This document shows, piece by piece, positions 1,939-40,260 of a DNA stretch of 40,532 nucleotides. The notes under the pieces were generated by a model. That model was not told where the DNA came from, made no database searches, and saw nothing but the letters and a program-made list of their open reading frames with translations. Made by a program: the position numbers and the translations under genes. How positions within the stretch are numbered: position 1 is the first letter of the stretch; each line of letters opens with the position of its first letter. Location: positions 1 through 40,532 of IMG/VR virus record IMGVR_UViG_2799112910_000003; one strand, given 5' to 3'. The DNA comes from a virus.

Positions 1939-2832
1939 TCACACTAATTTGTCAATCCCAGACAAAAATTTTCTTGCAATTATAGCAGCTATTGCACCAT
2001 CACTTGCTGCAGTTACTAGCTGTTTAATTGGTGACGATTTGCAATCACCAGCAACATACACACCAGGTATTCCAGTAACAATGCTAAACCCGTTGTTATC
2101 ACTTTTTAACTGTGGGAATAAGGAATTATCAAATGTATATCCAATCTTTAAAAATACTCTCGCACAGTTTAGTGTGCTTGCTTTACCATTTTCTAATATT
2201 TCAATTTTTTTAACGTCTTCATGTATAGACAAAAGTTTCGTATTATAGTGTATAAAACAATTTTTAATAGTGGATATGTCTTTTACTAGTTTTAAATCAG
2301 CACGTGCTTGATTCGATCTAATTAATAAATGTACCTTTTTTGCAATATCCTTCATATATTTTGCACATTCAAAAGCGCTGTTGCCACCACCTACAATAGC
2401 AATATTTTCGCCCTTAAAGAAATGCCCATCACAAAGTTCACAATATGTAAAATTCTCATTTTCAAATCCTTCAAGTGTTCGTGGTTGGGATCCAATAGCA
2501 ATAATCACAGATTTAGCAAAATAAATACCTTTATCTGTATAAATTTTTTTAATTTTACCATCAAGCTGTGCCTTAATTACTTCAGCATACTTAGTAATCC
2601 CGAATTTAGAAACTTGTGAATAAATTTTTTGGCTTAGTTCTTTTCCTTTGATACTTGAAAAACCAGCATAGTTTTCAACTGTTGGAATATAATTGAGTTT
2701 CCCACCAAACAATTCACGCTCAAAAACTAAAACTTTAGTGCATGAATAAGCAAGATATAAACCAGCTGTTAATCCGGCAATCCCACCACCAATGACTATA
2801 CAATCAAAAATTTCTTGTTTTGTTTCAATCAT
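1939..2832 (-). CDS. trxB: Thioredoxin reductase
   Basis: GGGIAG FAD motif, YCELCDG redox CxxC, GGGNSA NADPH motif, VAGD. Confidence 0.9.
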   Translation of the reverse strand: MIETKQEIFDCIVIGGGIAGLTAGLYLAYSCTKVLVFERELFGGKLNYIPTVENYAGFSSIKGKELSQKIYSQVSKFGITKYAEVIKAQLDGKIKKIYTDKGIYFAKSVIIAIGSQPRTLEGFENENFTYCELCDGHFFKGENIAIVGGGNSAFECAKYMKDIAKKVHLLIRSNQARADLKLVKDISTIKNCFIHYNTKLLSIHEDVKKIEILENGKASTLNCARVFLKIGYTFDNSLFPQLKSDNNGFSIVTGIPGVYVAGDCKSSPIKQLVTAASDGAIAAIIARKFLSGIDKLV

Positions 2833-4139
2833 ATAATATTCATCCTTCCCAATTTAGGACTAATGTTCAATTTAGAATTAAGAATACTAGCATGTGGAAT
2901 AAAAGCATATTCCATAGCATCTATCATATCTATATTGACCGATCCATCATCTAGCCTAGTATCTATTGCGCTTGAATCCCAAACTGCATTTCTTAGTGAT
3001 TCAATTGTATTTGTACATGTATTCATTATTTTAAATCTTTGAAAACTCATAAGTCTACTCAATAACTGAATACGATCAATAATTTTGATTTTTTTACAAT
3101 CCGACACTTGAAACTGTCCAACATATCTATAAAGGTAGTATCTAAGTCCCTTTGTTAAGACCTGCCCAAGGCCACCCCAATCAGCTAAAATATTGTTTAT
3201 ATTTCCAAATTTAGAAAATACTTTTCTCACAAATTGTGCAATATATTTATACAATTGTTCTGGTGATTGGACACCTTCTATTTGCATTTCATCTAAAACA
3301 CAAATAGATTCAAATTTGTTGCAAAATCCAACAGCTACAAGCGCAGTATTTGATTTGCTCGCGCCATAATCAATACCAATATTTATACTATCTAATTGTG
3401 AATTTTTTATATCACTAATGATATATTTTTCGGGTTCATTTGCAAACTGATCATATATAATGCCATCAGCTTGTACCCAGCGCCCTAGCACAAATCTTTC
3501 ATAAAAAACACCAGTATACTCTTTTTTTATATCATTTCGTATTTGAGTTTCTATAGTGGTGTTATCATCGAGTAAAAATTTCCATGTTTTTAAACTTATT
3601 TCAGATTGTCGAGTTAAAAACTTTTGATAGAACCAATGCATAGGTGAATCAGGGTTTGTGGTTCCAAGTAATTTCGAACCAGTTTGTGATAGACGAGATA
3701 ACAGCATTGTGAAAAAGTCTTCAGGATATAGTGTTATTTCATCACAATAAGCTGCTTGTAAAGTCATACCACGTATTTTATGTTCAGATCGTGAGTCATT
3801 AACGCCCTCTAAAAATATTTTATGGTCAAAAATACTCGCTTCTTTTTTAATTAGCGAGTATTTAAAAAATTTGGGTGGTACAATCGAATCTAGAATTGAC
3901 AAACAATTTCGTTTTAAAGATGTCAATGTTTTTCCGACCATCAAATAATTATTCTCATTTGGCATTTGGGCAAGTAAAATAAGCCAAGCGATTAAACTCA
4001 CATAGGTTTTCCCCGACCTTACAGATCCCTCTAATATATTGATCCTTTTAGTATTTCCAATAATAACATCTCGAACAAATGATTTTTGCTTTTCAGTAAA
4101 TCCATCAAACATCTTCTTTAATTTCCTTAATAGCATCAA
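2829..4139 (-). CDS. terL: Terminase large subunit (PBSX-like)
   Basis: EGSVRSGKT Walker A, AYCDEITL Walker B, TTNPDSP, nuclease IGIDYG and DMIDAMEY. Confidence 0.92.
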   Translation of the reverse strand: MMLLRKLKKMFDGFTEKQKSFVRDVIIGNTKRINILEGSVRSGKTYVSLIAWLILLAQMPNENNYLMVGKTLTSLKRNCLSILDSIVPPKFFKYSLIKKEASIFDHKIFLEGVNDSRSEHKIRGMTLQAAYCDEITLYPEDFFTMLLSRLSQTGSKLLGTTNPDSPMHWFYQKFLTRQSEISLKTWKFLLDDNTTIETQIRNDIKKEYTGVFYERFVLGRWVQADGIIYDQFANEPEKYIISDIKNSQLDSINIGIDYGASKSNTALVAVGFCNKFESICVLDEMQIEGVQSPEQLYKYIAQFVRKVFSKFGNINNILADWGGLGQVLTKGLRYYLYRYVGQFQVSDCKKIKIIDRIQLLSRLMSFQRFKIMNTCTNTIESLRNAVWDSSAIDTRLDDGSVNIDMIDAMEYAFIPHASILNSKLNISPKLGRMNII

Positions 4140-4434
4140 TTAATTTCCCAAACACTTTATCAGCTTTTGATGTTTGTGAACTAATTGAGCCATTTTGAAC
4201 GTTAATTAAGAATTCCAAAATTTCATGGTCGCCTTTTGCAATACCTTTTAAAAATACAGAAACAATTAAAGCAAATATCAAAGTATTTTTATACGAAACA
4301 TTTGGCATATCTAATAAGGAAATAGTTTTTTTAATATCTTCCAACTGTGGCGGGATGGGAGCCAACATAATGTTATCTATCATTTCAGATATATATATTT
4401 TTTGTTTTTCAAATTTACTATTCAAAATAATCAC
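4105..4434 (-). CDS. Probable terminase small subunit
   Basis: Directly upstream of and overlapping terL; helical C-terminus. No diagnostic motif. Confidence 0.4.
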   Translation of the reverse strand: MIILNSKFEKQKIYISEMIDNIMLAPIPPQLEDIKKTISLLDMPNVSYKNTLIFALIVSVFLKGIAKGDHEILEFLINVQNGSISSQTSKADKVFGKLIDAIKEIKEDV

Positions 4435-38579: not shown

Positions 38580-39773
38580 TTAATTTTGTAAAGTTGCATT
38601 TTGTATTTTCATGTATCCATTTACAGGTGTTGAAAAAAATAATGTTTCAAAAGATGTGCTCGTTGCTTCTTGGGACATAGTATTTAATTTGTATTTTGTG
38701 CCTGGAAATGAACTTATGTCCAAAGTACCATAGTATACGTCTACTGTGGCCGAATAGCCACTACCTTCACCCCCAGCAAACAATGCATATTTTCCTACAG
38801 ATGCTCCTGCTAGTCTGTACTTAACTACGCTTAATGTAGTTGGAGTACTGCGTGTAAGTGACATATTATATGCGTCTACTGTGGAATAATTGCTACTATG
38901 GGCACCCCCAGCAAACAATGCATATCCCCCTACAGATGCTCCTGCTAGGTCTCTTCTAGCTTCGCTTAATGTAGTTGGAGTACTGCGTGTAAGCGATGTA
39001 TCATATGCGTCTACTGTGGAAGAAATTATACTACCTAGACCCCCAGCAAACAATGCATATCCCCCTACAGATGCTCCTGCAAGGCCTGACCTAGCTTCGC
39101 TTAATGTAGTTGGAGTGCTGCGTGTAAGTGACGTATTATATGCGTCTACTATGGAAGAATAGGTAGGATAGCCACTGACGGTTCCCCCAGCAAACAATGC
39201 ATATTCCCCTACAGATGCTCCTGCAAGGCCTACCCTAGCCGCACTTAATTCAGTTGGAGTACTGCGTTGAAGTGCCATATTATATGCGTCTACTGTGGAA
39301 GAATAGGAAGCACCTCCAGCAAACAATGCATATCCCCCTACAGATGCTCCTACTGGAAATGACCTAGCTGTTCTTAATGCAGTCGGAGTACTGCGTGTAA
39401 GTGACGTATTATATGCATCGACTACTGCACTTCTAGTATCGGAACTTGTAGTAGACCCGCCAGCAAAAAGAACATAATTCCCTACAGATGCTCCTGCTAG
39501 CGCTCTTCTAGCTGTGCTTAATGTAGTTGGAGTGCTGTGTGTAAGCGACGTATTATATGCGTCTACTGTGGAATAATCGATACTTATATTGCTGGTCCCC
39601 CCAGCAAACAATGCATATTCCCCTACAGATGCTCCTGCTAGGTATGACCTAGCTGAAGATAAAGCACTTGCACCGGTATGTGCTAAATTTGTAGCATGTG
39701 AGTAATTTTCAAAAGTAATTGTTGCCTCGCCGCCGCCCGCACCTGCGCGCCTTGTTATTAGCGATTCACCCAT
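38580..39773 (-). CDS. Kelch-like beta-propeller tail protein
   Basis: Seven ~45-aa repeats, LSxARxxLAGASVGxYALFAGG..STVDAY. Confidence 0.8.
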   Translation of the reverse strand: MGESLITRRAGAGGGEATITFENYSHATNLAHTGASALSSARSYLAGASVGEYALFAGGTSNISIDYSTVDAYNTSLTHSTPTTLSTARRALAGASVGNYVLFAGGSTTSSDTRSAVVDAYNTSLTRSTPTALRTARSFPVGASVGGYALFAGGASYSSTVDAYNMALQRSTPTELSAARVGLAGASVGEYALFAGGTVSGYPTYSSIVDAYNTSLTRSTPTTLSEARSGLAGASVGGYALFAGGLGSIISSTVDAYDTSLTRSTPTTLSEARRDLAGASVGGYALFAGGAHSSNYSTVDAYNMSLTRSTPTTLSVVKYRLAGASVGKYALFAGGEGSGYSATVDVYYGTLDISSFPGTKYKLNTMSQEATSTSFETLFFSTPVNGYMKIQNATLQN

Positions 39774-39801
39774 TTAATCACCTCCTTACAATTATTAAAA
39801 T

Positions 39802-40260
39802 TTATGGATTTTCATTAATAAAATACGAGCCTGAAAATCCAATCCAAACTGTGCCTGTATCCCAGGTAAATGCTGAAATTCCATTATTTTGTTCAAGATT
39901 AACTTGTGTTGTACCATCAGGTATTGTGCAGGTAAGTCCAGGGAGTGACGTGACAATAGCGCCACCCATCTCCTGCATAGCAAGCGCCTGCCCACCGGCT
40001 CCACTCATACTTGTAAAAGGCAAGTTACCGAGTGATGAATATCCTTGTCCTCGGTTTGTAATTTCAGCTTTAATATGAAATGTTATAAAGCATATATTAT
40101 CTACTCTTTTATATTTACCATAATTATATACTACCGTATATGTAGGGTTTACTAATGTTTGTGGTTCTCCACTTTCCTCATCACGTCTACAAGTTAATGT
40201 TATTTGAAAATCTCCAGTTTGTATTTTAGGAGTATGATATATATTTATTGATTGTGCCAT
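39802..40260 (-). CDS. Stand-alone RBP-head-like tail protein
   Basis: YGKYKRVDNICFITFHIKA..LPF; paralogous to the N-terminus of 32239..33237. Confidence 0.6.
   Translation of the reverse strand: MAQSINIYHTPKIQTGDFQITLTCRRDEESGEPQTLVNPTYTVVYNYGKYKRVDNICFITFHIKAEITNRGQGYSSLGNLPFTSMSGAGGQALAMQEMGGAIVTSLPGLTCTIPDGTTQVNLEQNNGISAFTWDTGTVWIGFSGSYFINENP

Follow-up and report, generated by a model that had tools for sequence, protein, structure and literature searches.

Tailed phages keep their head and tail genes in a fixed order, a highly dependable regularity that is routinely used for annotation by position and for which co-transcription, linkage of interacting proteins and translational coupling are candidate causes. 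How far can a phage depart from it, and by what route? The question is raised by the viral contig IMGVR_UViG_2799112910_000003 of IMG/VR, analysed here over its whole length of 40,532 bases (the window), which is the complete circular genome of a low-GC temperate siphophage. The original prediction, made from the letters of this genome, held that its virion module is scrambled gene by gene and that several of the breakpoints coincide with toxin-antitoxin (TA) repeats. We find that the scrambling is real, and we put a probability of roughly 80% on the following reading: the contiguous, collinear late operon of the clade has been taken apart by recombination into at least six runs, some of them fused with replication, recombination and regulatory genes, and this is tolerated by way of short transcription units.

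The nearest annotated phages, found by protein search, are two uncultivated Caudoviricetes from rodent faeces, bajarodcaudo virus 3 (PQ006094.1, hereafter L001) and bajarodcaudo virus 2 (PQ006093.1, hereafter L002). Their large terminases are 53% and 49% identical to that of the window, their portals 47% and 39%, and their major capsid proteins (MCP) 65% and 38%, respectively. Orthologues were assigned by tblastn of the window proteins onto both genomes, which share 13-17 orthologous genes with the window, including Gp15, the tape measure protein (TMP), the Tal-like hub and a gene designated C17. Both relatives carry the canonical order terL-portal-scaffold-MCP-adaptor-C8-C9-(C10)-major tail protein-chaperone-Gp15-TMP-C15-Tal (a 600-aa gene)-C17, and none of their 13 shared adjacencies is broken between them (0/13). 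In the window, 11 of 17 adjacencies are broken relative to L001 and 10 of 13 relative to L002. Its virion genes do not form a single collinear block on one strand; they are spread over at least six separate co-directional runs, several of which are shared with non-virion genes (sigma-chaperone-Gp15-ssb, TK-nuclease-x-terL-oxidoreductase and rep-dnaC-Tal). Judged by orthology, the predicted scrambling of the virion module thus holds, and synteny with relatives, which had been proposed as a check, shows the order to be derived relative to the canonical one of L001 and L002. The siphophage morphogenesis set (SPP1/A118-like, with an HK97-fold capsid) is nevertheless complete, comprising terL, portal, scaffold, MCP, neck, major tail protein, chaperones, TMP and hub, with two exceptions: C10 is broken in the window, and terS has no candidate supported by a family in PHROGs, Pfam or NCBIfam.

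The individual displacements named in the original prediction were all recovered (coordinates in the table below). The distance between terminase and portal, given there as about 23 kb, is 23.2 kb on the linear map and 14.5 kb by the other way round the circle; in L001 terL abuts the portal. Here it belongs to the run TK / VRR-NUC / 109-aa open reading frame (ORF) / terL / FAD-oxidoreductase, a context shared by contigs L003 and L004. The 109-aa ORF had been called terS, a label that could not be verified, there being no match to it in PHROGs, Pfam or NCBIfam; its homologue in the relative G001, described below, adjoins the oxidoreductase without terL between them and lies 7 kb from terL, on the other strand. 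The two genes of the chaperone position were said to sit between ssb and the late regulator, and they do lie between the sigma-like gene, which heads the run, and ssb (5930-6343), with junctions that overlap or nearly touch; the two ORFs themselves overlap by 4 nt. In L001 their orthologues stand between the major tail protein and TMP (9715-10745), as does Gp15 in L002, and in the window this position is not occupied by them. The placement seen in the window recurs in L003, L004 and G001.

A Tal-like gene had been placed after dnaC on the opposite strand, and the gene indeed begins 44 nt after dnaC, on the strand opposite to the other virion genes, with the same placement in L013; its orthologue in L001 and L002 comes after TMP-C15. 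The 577-aa product falls in PHROG 13879, for which no function is annotated, and has no Pfam match. The 54 homologues in the alignment gave chance-level matches only (one member each, E 0.006-0.008), and a sequence search of the PDB returned no match for this protein or for C9 and chance-level matches only for C15. The protein was aligned with 53 of 136 homologues from an exhaustive profile-free search and then modelled with AlphaFold2 (AF2), giving a model with a predicted local distance difference score (pLDDT) of 88.9 and a predicted TM-score (pTM) of 0.87. Foldseek gave this model a probability of 1.00 in all 50 matches listed, with TM-scores of 0.33-0.40 (query) and up to 0.68 (target). 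These matches include a contractile-injection-system spike (7aef_q, E 1e-13) and the tail-associated lysin (Tal) of phage NF5 (9m7n_A, 4e-12), as well as Mu gp44, Listeria prophage gp18, 80alpha Tal and T4 gp27. On the strength of the model, the gene is Tal-like in the sense of a gp27/VgrG-like hub fold.

As predicted for a head closure gene, the neck gene C8 stands upstream of the scaffold, a place that it also has in L021 and L022; it comes after the adaptor, its canonical place, in L001, L002 and L030. The completion genes were said to follow Dit, and C9 and C10 do follow C15; the C9 orthologue of L001 and L002 stands between C8 and the major tail protein. Head closure, Dit and completion are positional names, taken solely from where these genes lie in the canonical relatives. 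The C10 homologue is the gene after C9 in L001 and lies beside C9 in G001. A frameshifting deletion of 74 nt at ~17003, private to the window, leaves C10 there as two ORFs of 81 aa (16956-17201) and 74 aa (16793-17017); C10 is intact in L013 (160 aa, 6347-6829), and contig 19 of run X8 has ~72 extra letters at that site. C17, the gene after Tal in the canonical relatives, lies here beside parA/parB. The adjacencies scaffold-MCP and TMP-C15 are kept, and the junction of the portal with dnaB (28906-30201) is also present in L006, L007 and G001.

Features of the window, with coordinates, strand, dN/dS (ratio of nonsynonymous to synonymous substitution rates) against near-identical relatives, and basis of assignment
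Feature	Coordinates	Strand	dN/dS	Basis or remark
Large terminase terL, displaced	2829-4139	-	0.13-0.14	PHROG 2 E 9e-41; Pfam Terminase_6N
109-aa ORF, terS of the original prediction	4105-4434	-		No family match
Chaperone-position pair, displaced: 143-aa gene (6902-7333) and Gp15-family gene (6315-6905)	6315-7333	-	chaperone 0.11-0.23; Gp15 0.12	Pfam PF06854 (Phage_Gp15) E 5.6e-22
Sigma-70 region-4 / ArpU-like candidate late regulator	7348-7824	-		Pfam Sigma70_r4_2 E 5e-7; weak DUF1492; NCBIfam sigma-70 below cut-off
Tal-like baseplate hub, 577 aa, displaced and inverted	10874-12607	+	0.07	AF2 and Foldseek; orthology
TnpB (IS200/IS605-type) insertion	15174-16375	+		Pfam Cas12f1-like_TNB E 1.5e-23
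C10, second gene of completion pair, broken	16793-17201	-		Homologous to L001 7918-8310, E 4e-10
C9, Minor_capsid_2 neck/completion protein, displaced after post-TMP gene C15	17198-17575	-		Pfam PF11114 E 1.1e-15
C15, small post-TMP gene	17579-17971	-		Orthologous to unannotated L001 ORF 14411-14761 (63%)
TMP-like gene, 602 aa	17988-19796	-	0.045	PHROG 1535 E 1.2e-13; orthologous to C-terminus of L001 TMP
Major-tail-protein-like gene	20133-20978	-		Orthology to L001 8409-9293
Head-tail adaptor	20995-21558	-	0.04-0.11	PHROG 541; orthology to L001 6471-7001
187-aa gene (hyp187)	21473-22036	-		Overlaps adaptor
Major capsid protein (MCP)	22705-23808	-		Pfam Phage_capsid E 2.5e-18; 65% identical to L001
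Scaffold	23820-24338	-		43% identical to L001
C8 neck gene, displaced upstream of scaffold	24411-24845	-	0.08-0.19	Orthologue of L001 7018-7434, L002 11492-11917
Portal, divergent from dnaB	27329-28756	-	0.036	PHROG 533 E 1.7e-90
C17, displaced beside parA/parB	32239-33237	-	0.09	tblastn: L001 16621-17007 (41%), L002 19378-19788
2.5-kb cassette: hyp152, 397-aa repeat protein, hyp108, toxin ORF	37940-40400	-		Elsewhere in near-identical strains
TA cluster T1	1500-1985
TA cluster T2	12610-13140
TA cluster T3	16520-16800
TA cluster T4	22040-22700
TA cluster T5	30370-30680
TA cluster T6	33250-33950
TA cluster T7	35830-36270
TA cluster T8	37850-38240

Misassembly was the outcome that the original prediction saw as undoing it. 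Independent contigs of IMG/VR, assembled from other metagenomes, follow the order of the window at 92-99% identity: L003 over 10839->856, L004 over 8314->850, L006 and L013 (a single 25.3-kb contig) over 9394..33915, and L011 over 27563->20734. Logan contigs of four runs from four studies were compared with window positions 15000-34999, contig breaks and uncovered parts not being counted as absence. They bridge 16999-22077 and 22283/22673-26227 in 4/4 runs each, and 26957-30260, including the portal|dnaB junction, and 30645-33433 in 3/4 runs each. The stretch 16500-26499 is present (at least 67% of sampled words) in 20 of 24 listed public runs from 13 studies, whose records are mostly bovine gut or bovine metagenomes, with one goat gut and several that have coded or no organism labels. 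Since nearly all junctions recur in independent contigs and runs, misassembly is ruled out for them and their scrambled order is real.

Further relatives were obtained by MCP searches of IMG/VR and of a collection of species genomes, five of them near-complete at 42-45 kb. The MCPs of G001-G004, G006 and G005:C60 are 73-92% identical to that of the window, and GC content is 31% in G002-G004 and G006. The four with MCP identities of 73-75% (G002, G003, G004, G006) keep terL-portal and the overall head-to-tail order; Gp15, C9, Tal and C17 are displaced in them, some onto the other strand, and chaperone and Gp15 lie more than 15 kb apart, a separation that, in G002-G004, argues against an obligatory frameshift fusion of the pair. 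G001 and G005:C60 (MCP 92%) are heavily scrambled, in arrangements that differ from that of the window and from one another: in G001, terL adjoins C9-C10 on the strand opposite to the portal, and TMP-C17-sigma-chaperone-Gp15 form one run. Broken adjacencies number 22/38 between the window and G001, 8/37 between G001 and G005:C60, 5/24 between G002 and G004, and 2/27 between G003 and G004. The last figure is due to the inversion of a C9-Tal segment of ~3.3 kb (G003 ~38000-41255 versus G004 43275-44682 plus 1-2000), the rest of the two genomes being collinear at 90-97% identity; at its ends only two short inverted repeats (40 and 60 nt) were found, not at both ends.

Scattering is thus a trait of the clade, graded from canonical (0/13) through partly dispersed to heavily dispersed (10/13 in the window), and it is still going on. 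The alternative foreseen in the original prediction, namely a stable lineage trait unrelated to TA positions, describes one level of this series and not the other: across many ruminant-gut samples the species-level lineage keeps one order, but genus-level relatives have different ones, and one cassette changes place among strains. Mycobacteriophage Marvin and cluster S offer a precedent for siphophage virion genes standing outside their canonical place; two minor tail genes are displaced there (PMC9872701). The window differs from that account in having 10/13 adjacencies broken, including those of terL, chaperones, neck genes and hub, and in an order that varies between relatives. A limited literature search found no report of a comparably scrambled siphophage virion module; what sets this genome and its clade apart is the extent of the scrambling (10/13 core adjacencies), the graded series, the continuing movement of a cassette and the very high load of TA-like modules in a small siphophage.

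These modules make up the only dispersed repeat family of the window (the set D5, D6, D10, D11 and D13). On the transcribed strand a unit has a promoter of the form TTGACA-N16/17-(TG)nTATAAT and, downstream of it, a short 5' hairpin (GCGTGAC...GGGTTCAT, or one of two variant families), ~20 AT-rich bases and a strong intrinsic terminator; each is predicted to be a small RNA (sRNA) gene of 70-100 nt. Opposite many of the units lies a small ORF that has a Shine-Dalgarno site and encodes a peptide with a hydrophobic N-terminal part, often also with a basic tail. At least nine such toxin-like ORFs are present, eight of 21-45 aa found by script and a ninth, at ~1771-1885, found by eye where the script had chosen another frame. 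The promoter/5'-hairpin units number 26 in 40 kb, and some of their clusters are toxin-less tandem sRNA arrays. The predicted toxin and sRNA transcripts share the hairpin motif at their 5' starts, and in both it has the same sense. Within 1-20000, six promoters match the consensus at 12/12 positions, and there are 23 terminator-like sites against 9.0 expected. A small hydrophobic ORF with a ribosome-binding site, together with a convergent or overlapping sRNA that has its own promoter and terminator, is the architecture of type I TA loci, and judged by it the units are putative type I TA-like promoter/sRNA/terminator modules. No Rfam family was matched at its gathering score; the sub-threshold matches were BsrG (three, at 20.2-23.5 bits versus a gathering score of 55) and HgcC and IsrM (one each).

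Several type I TA modules on one prophage have been described for C. difficile phiCD630-1 (PMC7699646, with a review in PMC6563280, both seen in excerpt). As far as those excerpts go, the window resembles Firmicute prophage type I TA loci (phiCD630-1; bsrG/SR4 of B. subtilis SPbeta) in its hydrophobic ORFs of 21-45 aa with Shine-Dalgarno sites, its convergent sRNAs of 70-100 nt overlapping the 3' ends and its location on a mobile element. It differs in being far denser, with at least nine toxin ORFs and 26 promoter units in 40 kb, and in its many toxin-less tandem sRNA copies. When the units were counted with an nhmmer profile built from the 26, supplemented by a regular expression in the window, the profile recovered 21 in the window (26 with five found by regular expression only), 18 in G001, 14 in G002, 21 in G003, 14 in G004, 10 in G006 (21 kb) and 15 in G005:C60. 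None was found in L001 or L002; unlike the scrambled window with its 26 units, both bajarodcaudo viruses are canonical and have 0.

One explanation, possible but in our view doubtful, is that recombination between the dispersed TA/sRNA cassettes was the main engine that moved the virion genes. It would account for units being confined to the scrambled clade (10-26 per genome versus 0 in L001 and L002), and the claim that several breakpoints fall at TA repeats is literally true: relative to L001 a unit lies at 3/11 broken adjacencies, relative to L002 at 3/10 and relative to G001 at 5/22. In window coordinates, however, this is no more than at conserved adjacencies (1/6, 1/3 and 2/16; Fisher p = 1.0, 1.0 and 0.68, respectively). 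In G001 coordinates, units do lie at 10/22 breakpoints with the window against 2/16 conserved adjacencies (Fisher p = 0.04), a value that is uncorrected and confounded by gap length, and eight further pair and coordinate tests of enrichment gave one-sided p values of 0.22-0.85. Most breakpoints in the window are close gene-to-gene junctions free of repeats. The spacers between the displaced genes (terL, chaperones, C8 and C9) and the genes beside them measure -4 to +72 nt and contain no unit. The 17-mer TCTAAAACTTTGTACAA, from the -35 side of a toxin promoter, speaks for such an engine in that C15, C8 and hyp187 of G001 and G005:C60 have it 5-15 nt ahead of their starts; it has 0 matches in the window. 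Its sites (G001 880, 2132, 10867 and 13359; G005:C60 16902, 22618 and 23593) look as if one TA-plus-leader junction had been copied before three virion blocks.

At the level of strains the units fare better, since they coincide with variation there. In contig L007, window 38950->37854 runs on into 30568->27571, and the point of crossover falls within a shared unit. The hyp152-rep397-hyp108 cassette, which follows a methylase in the window, comes after the hyp149/ParA/C17 block (window 33433->30648) in L046 and L047 and abuts the dnaB-portal region in L007; in L004 it is not at the methylase, a single methylase being joined there directly to 36363->33910. The right end of this cassette falls at a unit. 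L006 has a 1.9-kb insert at T4 (L006 11696-13585), consisting of a Dam-like (DPPY) methylase flanked by toxin-like small ORFs, and T3-T6 are points at which contigs from other runs either end or have another module; accessory cassettes and TA modules are swapped at these clusters between near-identical genomes. Hence the units mark strain-level insertions and deletions and at least one recombinant junction. There is a precedent for this in T4-type phages, where, according to excerpts of two reports (PMC2839356, PMC4122927), promoter-terminator cassettes known as PeSL mediate modular shuffling. As in those excerpts, dispersed promoter and stem-loop motifs flank variable genes in the window and mark sites of insertion, deletion and replacement between close relatives (T3-T8); a repeated composite motif in intergenic regions and strain-level endpoints at cassettes are both seen here, and most core-gene breakpoints do not follow the pattern. 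Set against the same excerpts, the units of the window differ in resembling complete type I TA modules (toxin ORF plus convergent sRNA) and in residing in a small siphophage, and it is core virion genes that are scattered, not only hyperplastic accessory regions, with no enrichment found at core breakpoints. The role of the TA units is thus unproven, and the breakpoint counts of core genes do not support it.

The reading that we prefer, dismantling of the late operon by recombination, does not depend on a single engine. Repeated recombination events would have produced the rearrangements, some by homologous exchange between TA-like modules or between paralogous methylase genes, and most by illegitimate events whose products selection then trimmed to gene boundaries; Erf, SSB and the nuclease, all encoded by the phage, may assist in this. 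Scattering would be tolerated once expression was freed from a single long late transcript, with numerous strong promoters and terminators cutting the genome into short units. In T4, many dispersed late genes are transcribed with the phage sigma factor gp55. By analogy, the sigma-like activator of the window, or promoters adjoining TA modules, could drive the scattered late units in trans. The window is like T4 in having virion genes in many separate units and a phage-encoded sigma-like protein, and unlike it in that no late promoter motif was found and that the regulator corresponds to a sigma-70 region-4-like part only. Co-regulation in trans is conjecture because of that missing motif. Inspection by eye of the 45 nt preceding 49 gene starts revealed no conserved linker.

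A more specific version can be offered only tentatively: that invasion by TA-like modules made the shuffling possible, by breaking up the late transcript, handing promoters to neighbouring genes and supplying homology for the excision and reinsertion of cassettes, so that the late operon was dismantled into autonomous cassettes whose shuffling is ongoing. If this is true, the near-universal order of virion genes would be a consequence of expression from a single transcript, and not of the needs of assembly or linkage, and these phages would be a natural system for testing why order is kept.

Several observations weigh against dismantling by recombination as we describe it. No shared late-promoter or operator motif was found: the 12-mer GTATATGAATAC upstream of both the portal and the sigma gene has 2 matches, a number equalled or exceeded in 11 of 100 shuffles and no different from chance. 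Enrichment of units at core-gene breakpoints is seen neither in window coordinates nor in the eight other comparisons, and the correlation of units with scrambling comes from what is essentially a single clade. Contig L007, 4 kb long, may be a chimera formed at the repeat. The C10 deletion may mean that the window copy is defective, or that the contig is in error. Finally, two junctions have no independent contig, ~40403 (3' flank of the first methylase|hyp152 cassette) and ~37850 (T8|second methylase). Both involve an 80-nt repeat, which is identical at the two ends of the contig and recurs at 36284-36363, the 3' end of the second methylase, making three exact copies. The doubt about placement is confined to 36.3-40.5 kb and concerns the 2.5-kb cassette and the second methylase.

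It is very unlikely that the out-of-place genes were instead acquired separately from other phages, with loss of the originals and no movement within the genome. Phage genomes are mosaic, and identities to G001 do range from 24% to 92%. Yet identities to L001 of the displaced genes (terL 53%, Gp15 48%, C17 41%, C9 38%, chaperone 29%, C8 26% and Tal 26%) overlap with those of genes in place (MCP 65%, C15 63%, portal 47%, scaffold 43%, major tail protein 35%, TMP 35% and adaptor 34%), which fits relocation over foreign replacement. The best match of each marker lies at one place per genome (second copies were not systematically sought), and the same genes are found at different places in successive relatives.

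A decaying element, that is, a defective phage-plasmid or remnant that no longer needs its virion genes and whose order is free to drift, we regard as highly improbable. It would accommodate the broken C10 of the window and the dN/dS values near 1 of LRR1, LRR2 and hyp194. However, the other virion genes are all intact in the window and its relatives, the displaced ones included, with dN/dS of 0.04-0.25 (gapped alignments were skipped, namely MCP, Rep, hyp346 versus L006 and VRR-NUC versus L004, and the TK frame as called has a stop in L003); going by these substitution ratios, purifying selection acts on the displaced genes. L013 has an intact C10 and X8 carries extra letters at the site of the deletion, the element recurs in 20 runs from 13 studies, and IMG/VR lists G001 and G004 with direct terminal repeats and a CheckV completeness of 100%. 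The lineage as a whole is not decaying.

Barely credible, lastly, is a contig stitched as a chimera across dispersed repeats from a genome that is truly canonical: the 80-nt repeat makes a two-circle reading possible (36.3 kb + 4.2 kb), and the methylase joint of L004, the other siting of the hyp152 cassette in L046 and L047 and the breaking of other runs' contigs at TA clusters would agree with it, but 8/11 breakpoints relative to L001 hold no repeat unit, several being tight or overlapping gene junctions that leave nothing to mis-join across, the dispersed repeats are 60-90% alike and not exact, and reproduction of the junctions by independent contigs from at least four metagenomes and by four further runs refutes it outside 36-40.5 kb.

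With relocation by recombination as the preferred reading, two uses of this clade follow. Given that the dispersed genes are under purifying selection, as their substitution ratios indicate, and that the element is widespread in cattle and goat gut, comparative transcriptomics or genetics could address why order is kept. A practical warning is that annotation by position fails for these phages. The link to an extreme load of type I TA-like modules, if it holds, would be of wider interest for the way in which regulatory cassettes reshape the genomes of mobile elements.

The whole record is one contig, which gives a circle of ~40,452 bp when closed on the 80-nt end overlap; its GC content is ~30%, and no tRNA was found in the window. 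The 53 ORFs of the window were scanned against PHROGs and Pfam. Virion families matched are terL, SPP1-type portal, HK97-type capsid protein, head-tail adaptor, Minor_capsid_2, Gp15 family and TMP-like; those of replication and maintenance are Erf, SSB, VRR-NUC nuclease, Rep/DnaD-like, DnaC-like, DnaB and ParA (AAA_31, E 1.8e-42). Two N6/N4 methylases, a nucleoside deoxyribosyltransferase, the sigma-70 region-4-like regulator and TnpB were also matched. Among these 53 ORFs no integrase or recombinase family was found, TnpB being the sole transposition gene; L001 encodes an integrase. Partition and replication genes thus stand alongside virion genes with no integrase found among the ORFs scanned, the assembly is circular with its 80-nt end overlap, and the relative G005:C60 is a stand-alone 42-kb contig in a metagenome-assembled genome (MAG). 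From this gene content the genome is probably kept as a plasmid, i.e. as a phage-plasmid. G005:C60 (also L031), a G001 relative of 42,072 bp with a 141-nt end overlap, was binned in an Acutalibacteraceae MAG, the sole hint of a host and one that comes from binning only. Within the rep gene, a 22-nt unit repeated 3.8 times (9281-9362) resembles the iterons of a replication origin.

The window as a whole gave no recognisable endolysin or holin family. Against NCBIfam, the 22 unassigned ORFs gave below-cut-off matches only (sigma families, and XkdX at E 0.002). The XkdX-like ORF (44 aa, 16356-16490, minus strand) stands isolated between T3 and the TnpB element. A near-identity DNA search (megablast) of window 1-25000 against phage and plasmid collections returned no match.

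The TnpB insertion is private to the lineage of the window: it is not in L013, and contigs of X3, X6 and X8 skip it (joint 15173->16376). The sub-threshold Rfam HgcC match (32 bits versus 50) falls at 16266-16372, the 3' end of the insertion and the expected site of a guide-like RNA. The two N6/N4 DNA methylases (1-1569 and 36266-37843) are paralogous, 45% identical overall (257 of 573 aligned positions). Their DNA is 79-91% alike in the 5' part and identical over the final 80 nt; the centre is different, as a swap of target-recognition domains would leave it, and the single methylase gene of L004 has a central part that differs from both. Proteins built of repeats lie in or beside the head module (26149-27242, 24845-25885 and 38580-39773). 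They comprise two BspA-type leucine-rich repeat (LRR) proteins with 69-nt repeats and two others, one of 346 aa (54-nt repeats) and one of 397 aa (135-nt repeats), and it is their position that is most variable between relatives.

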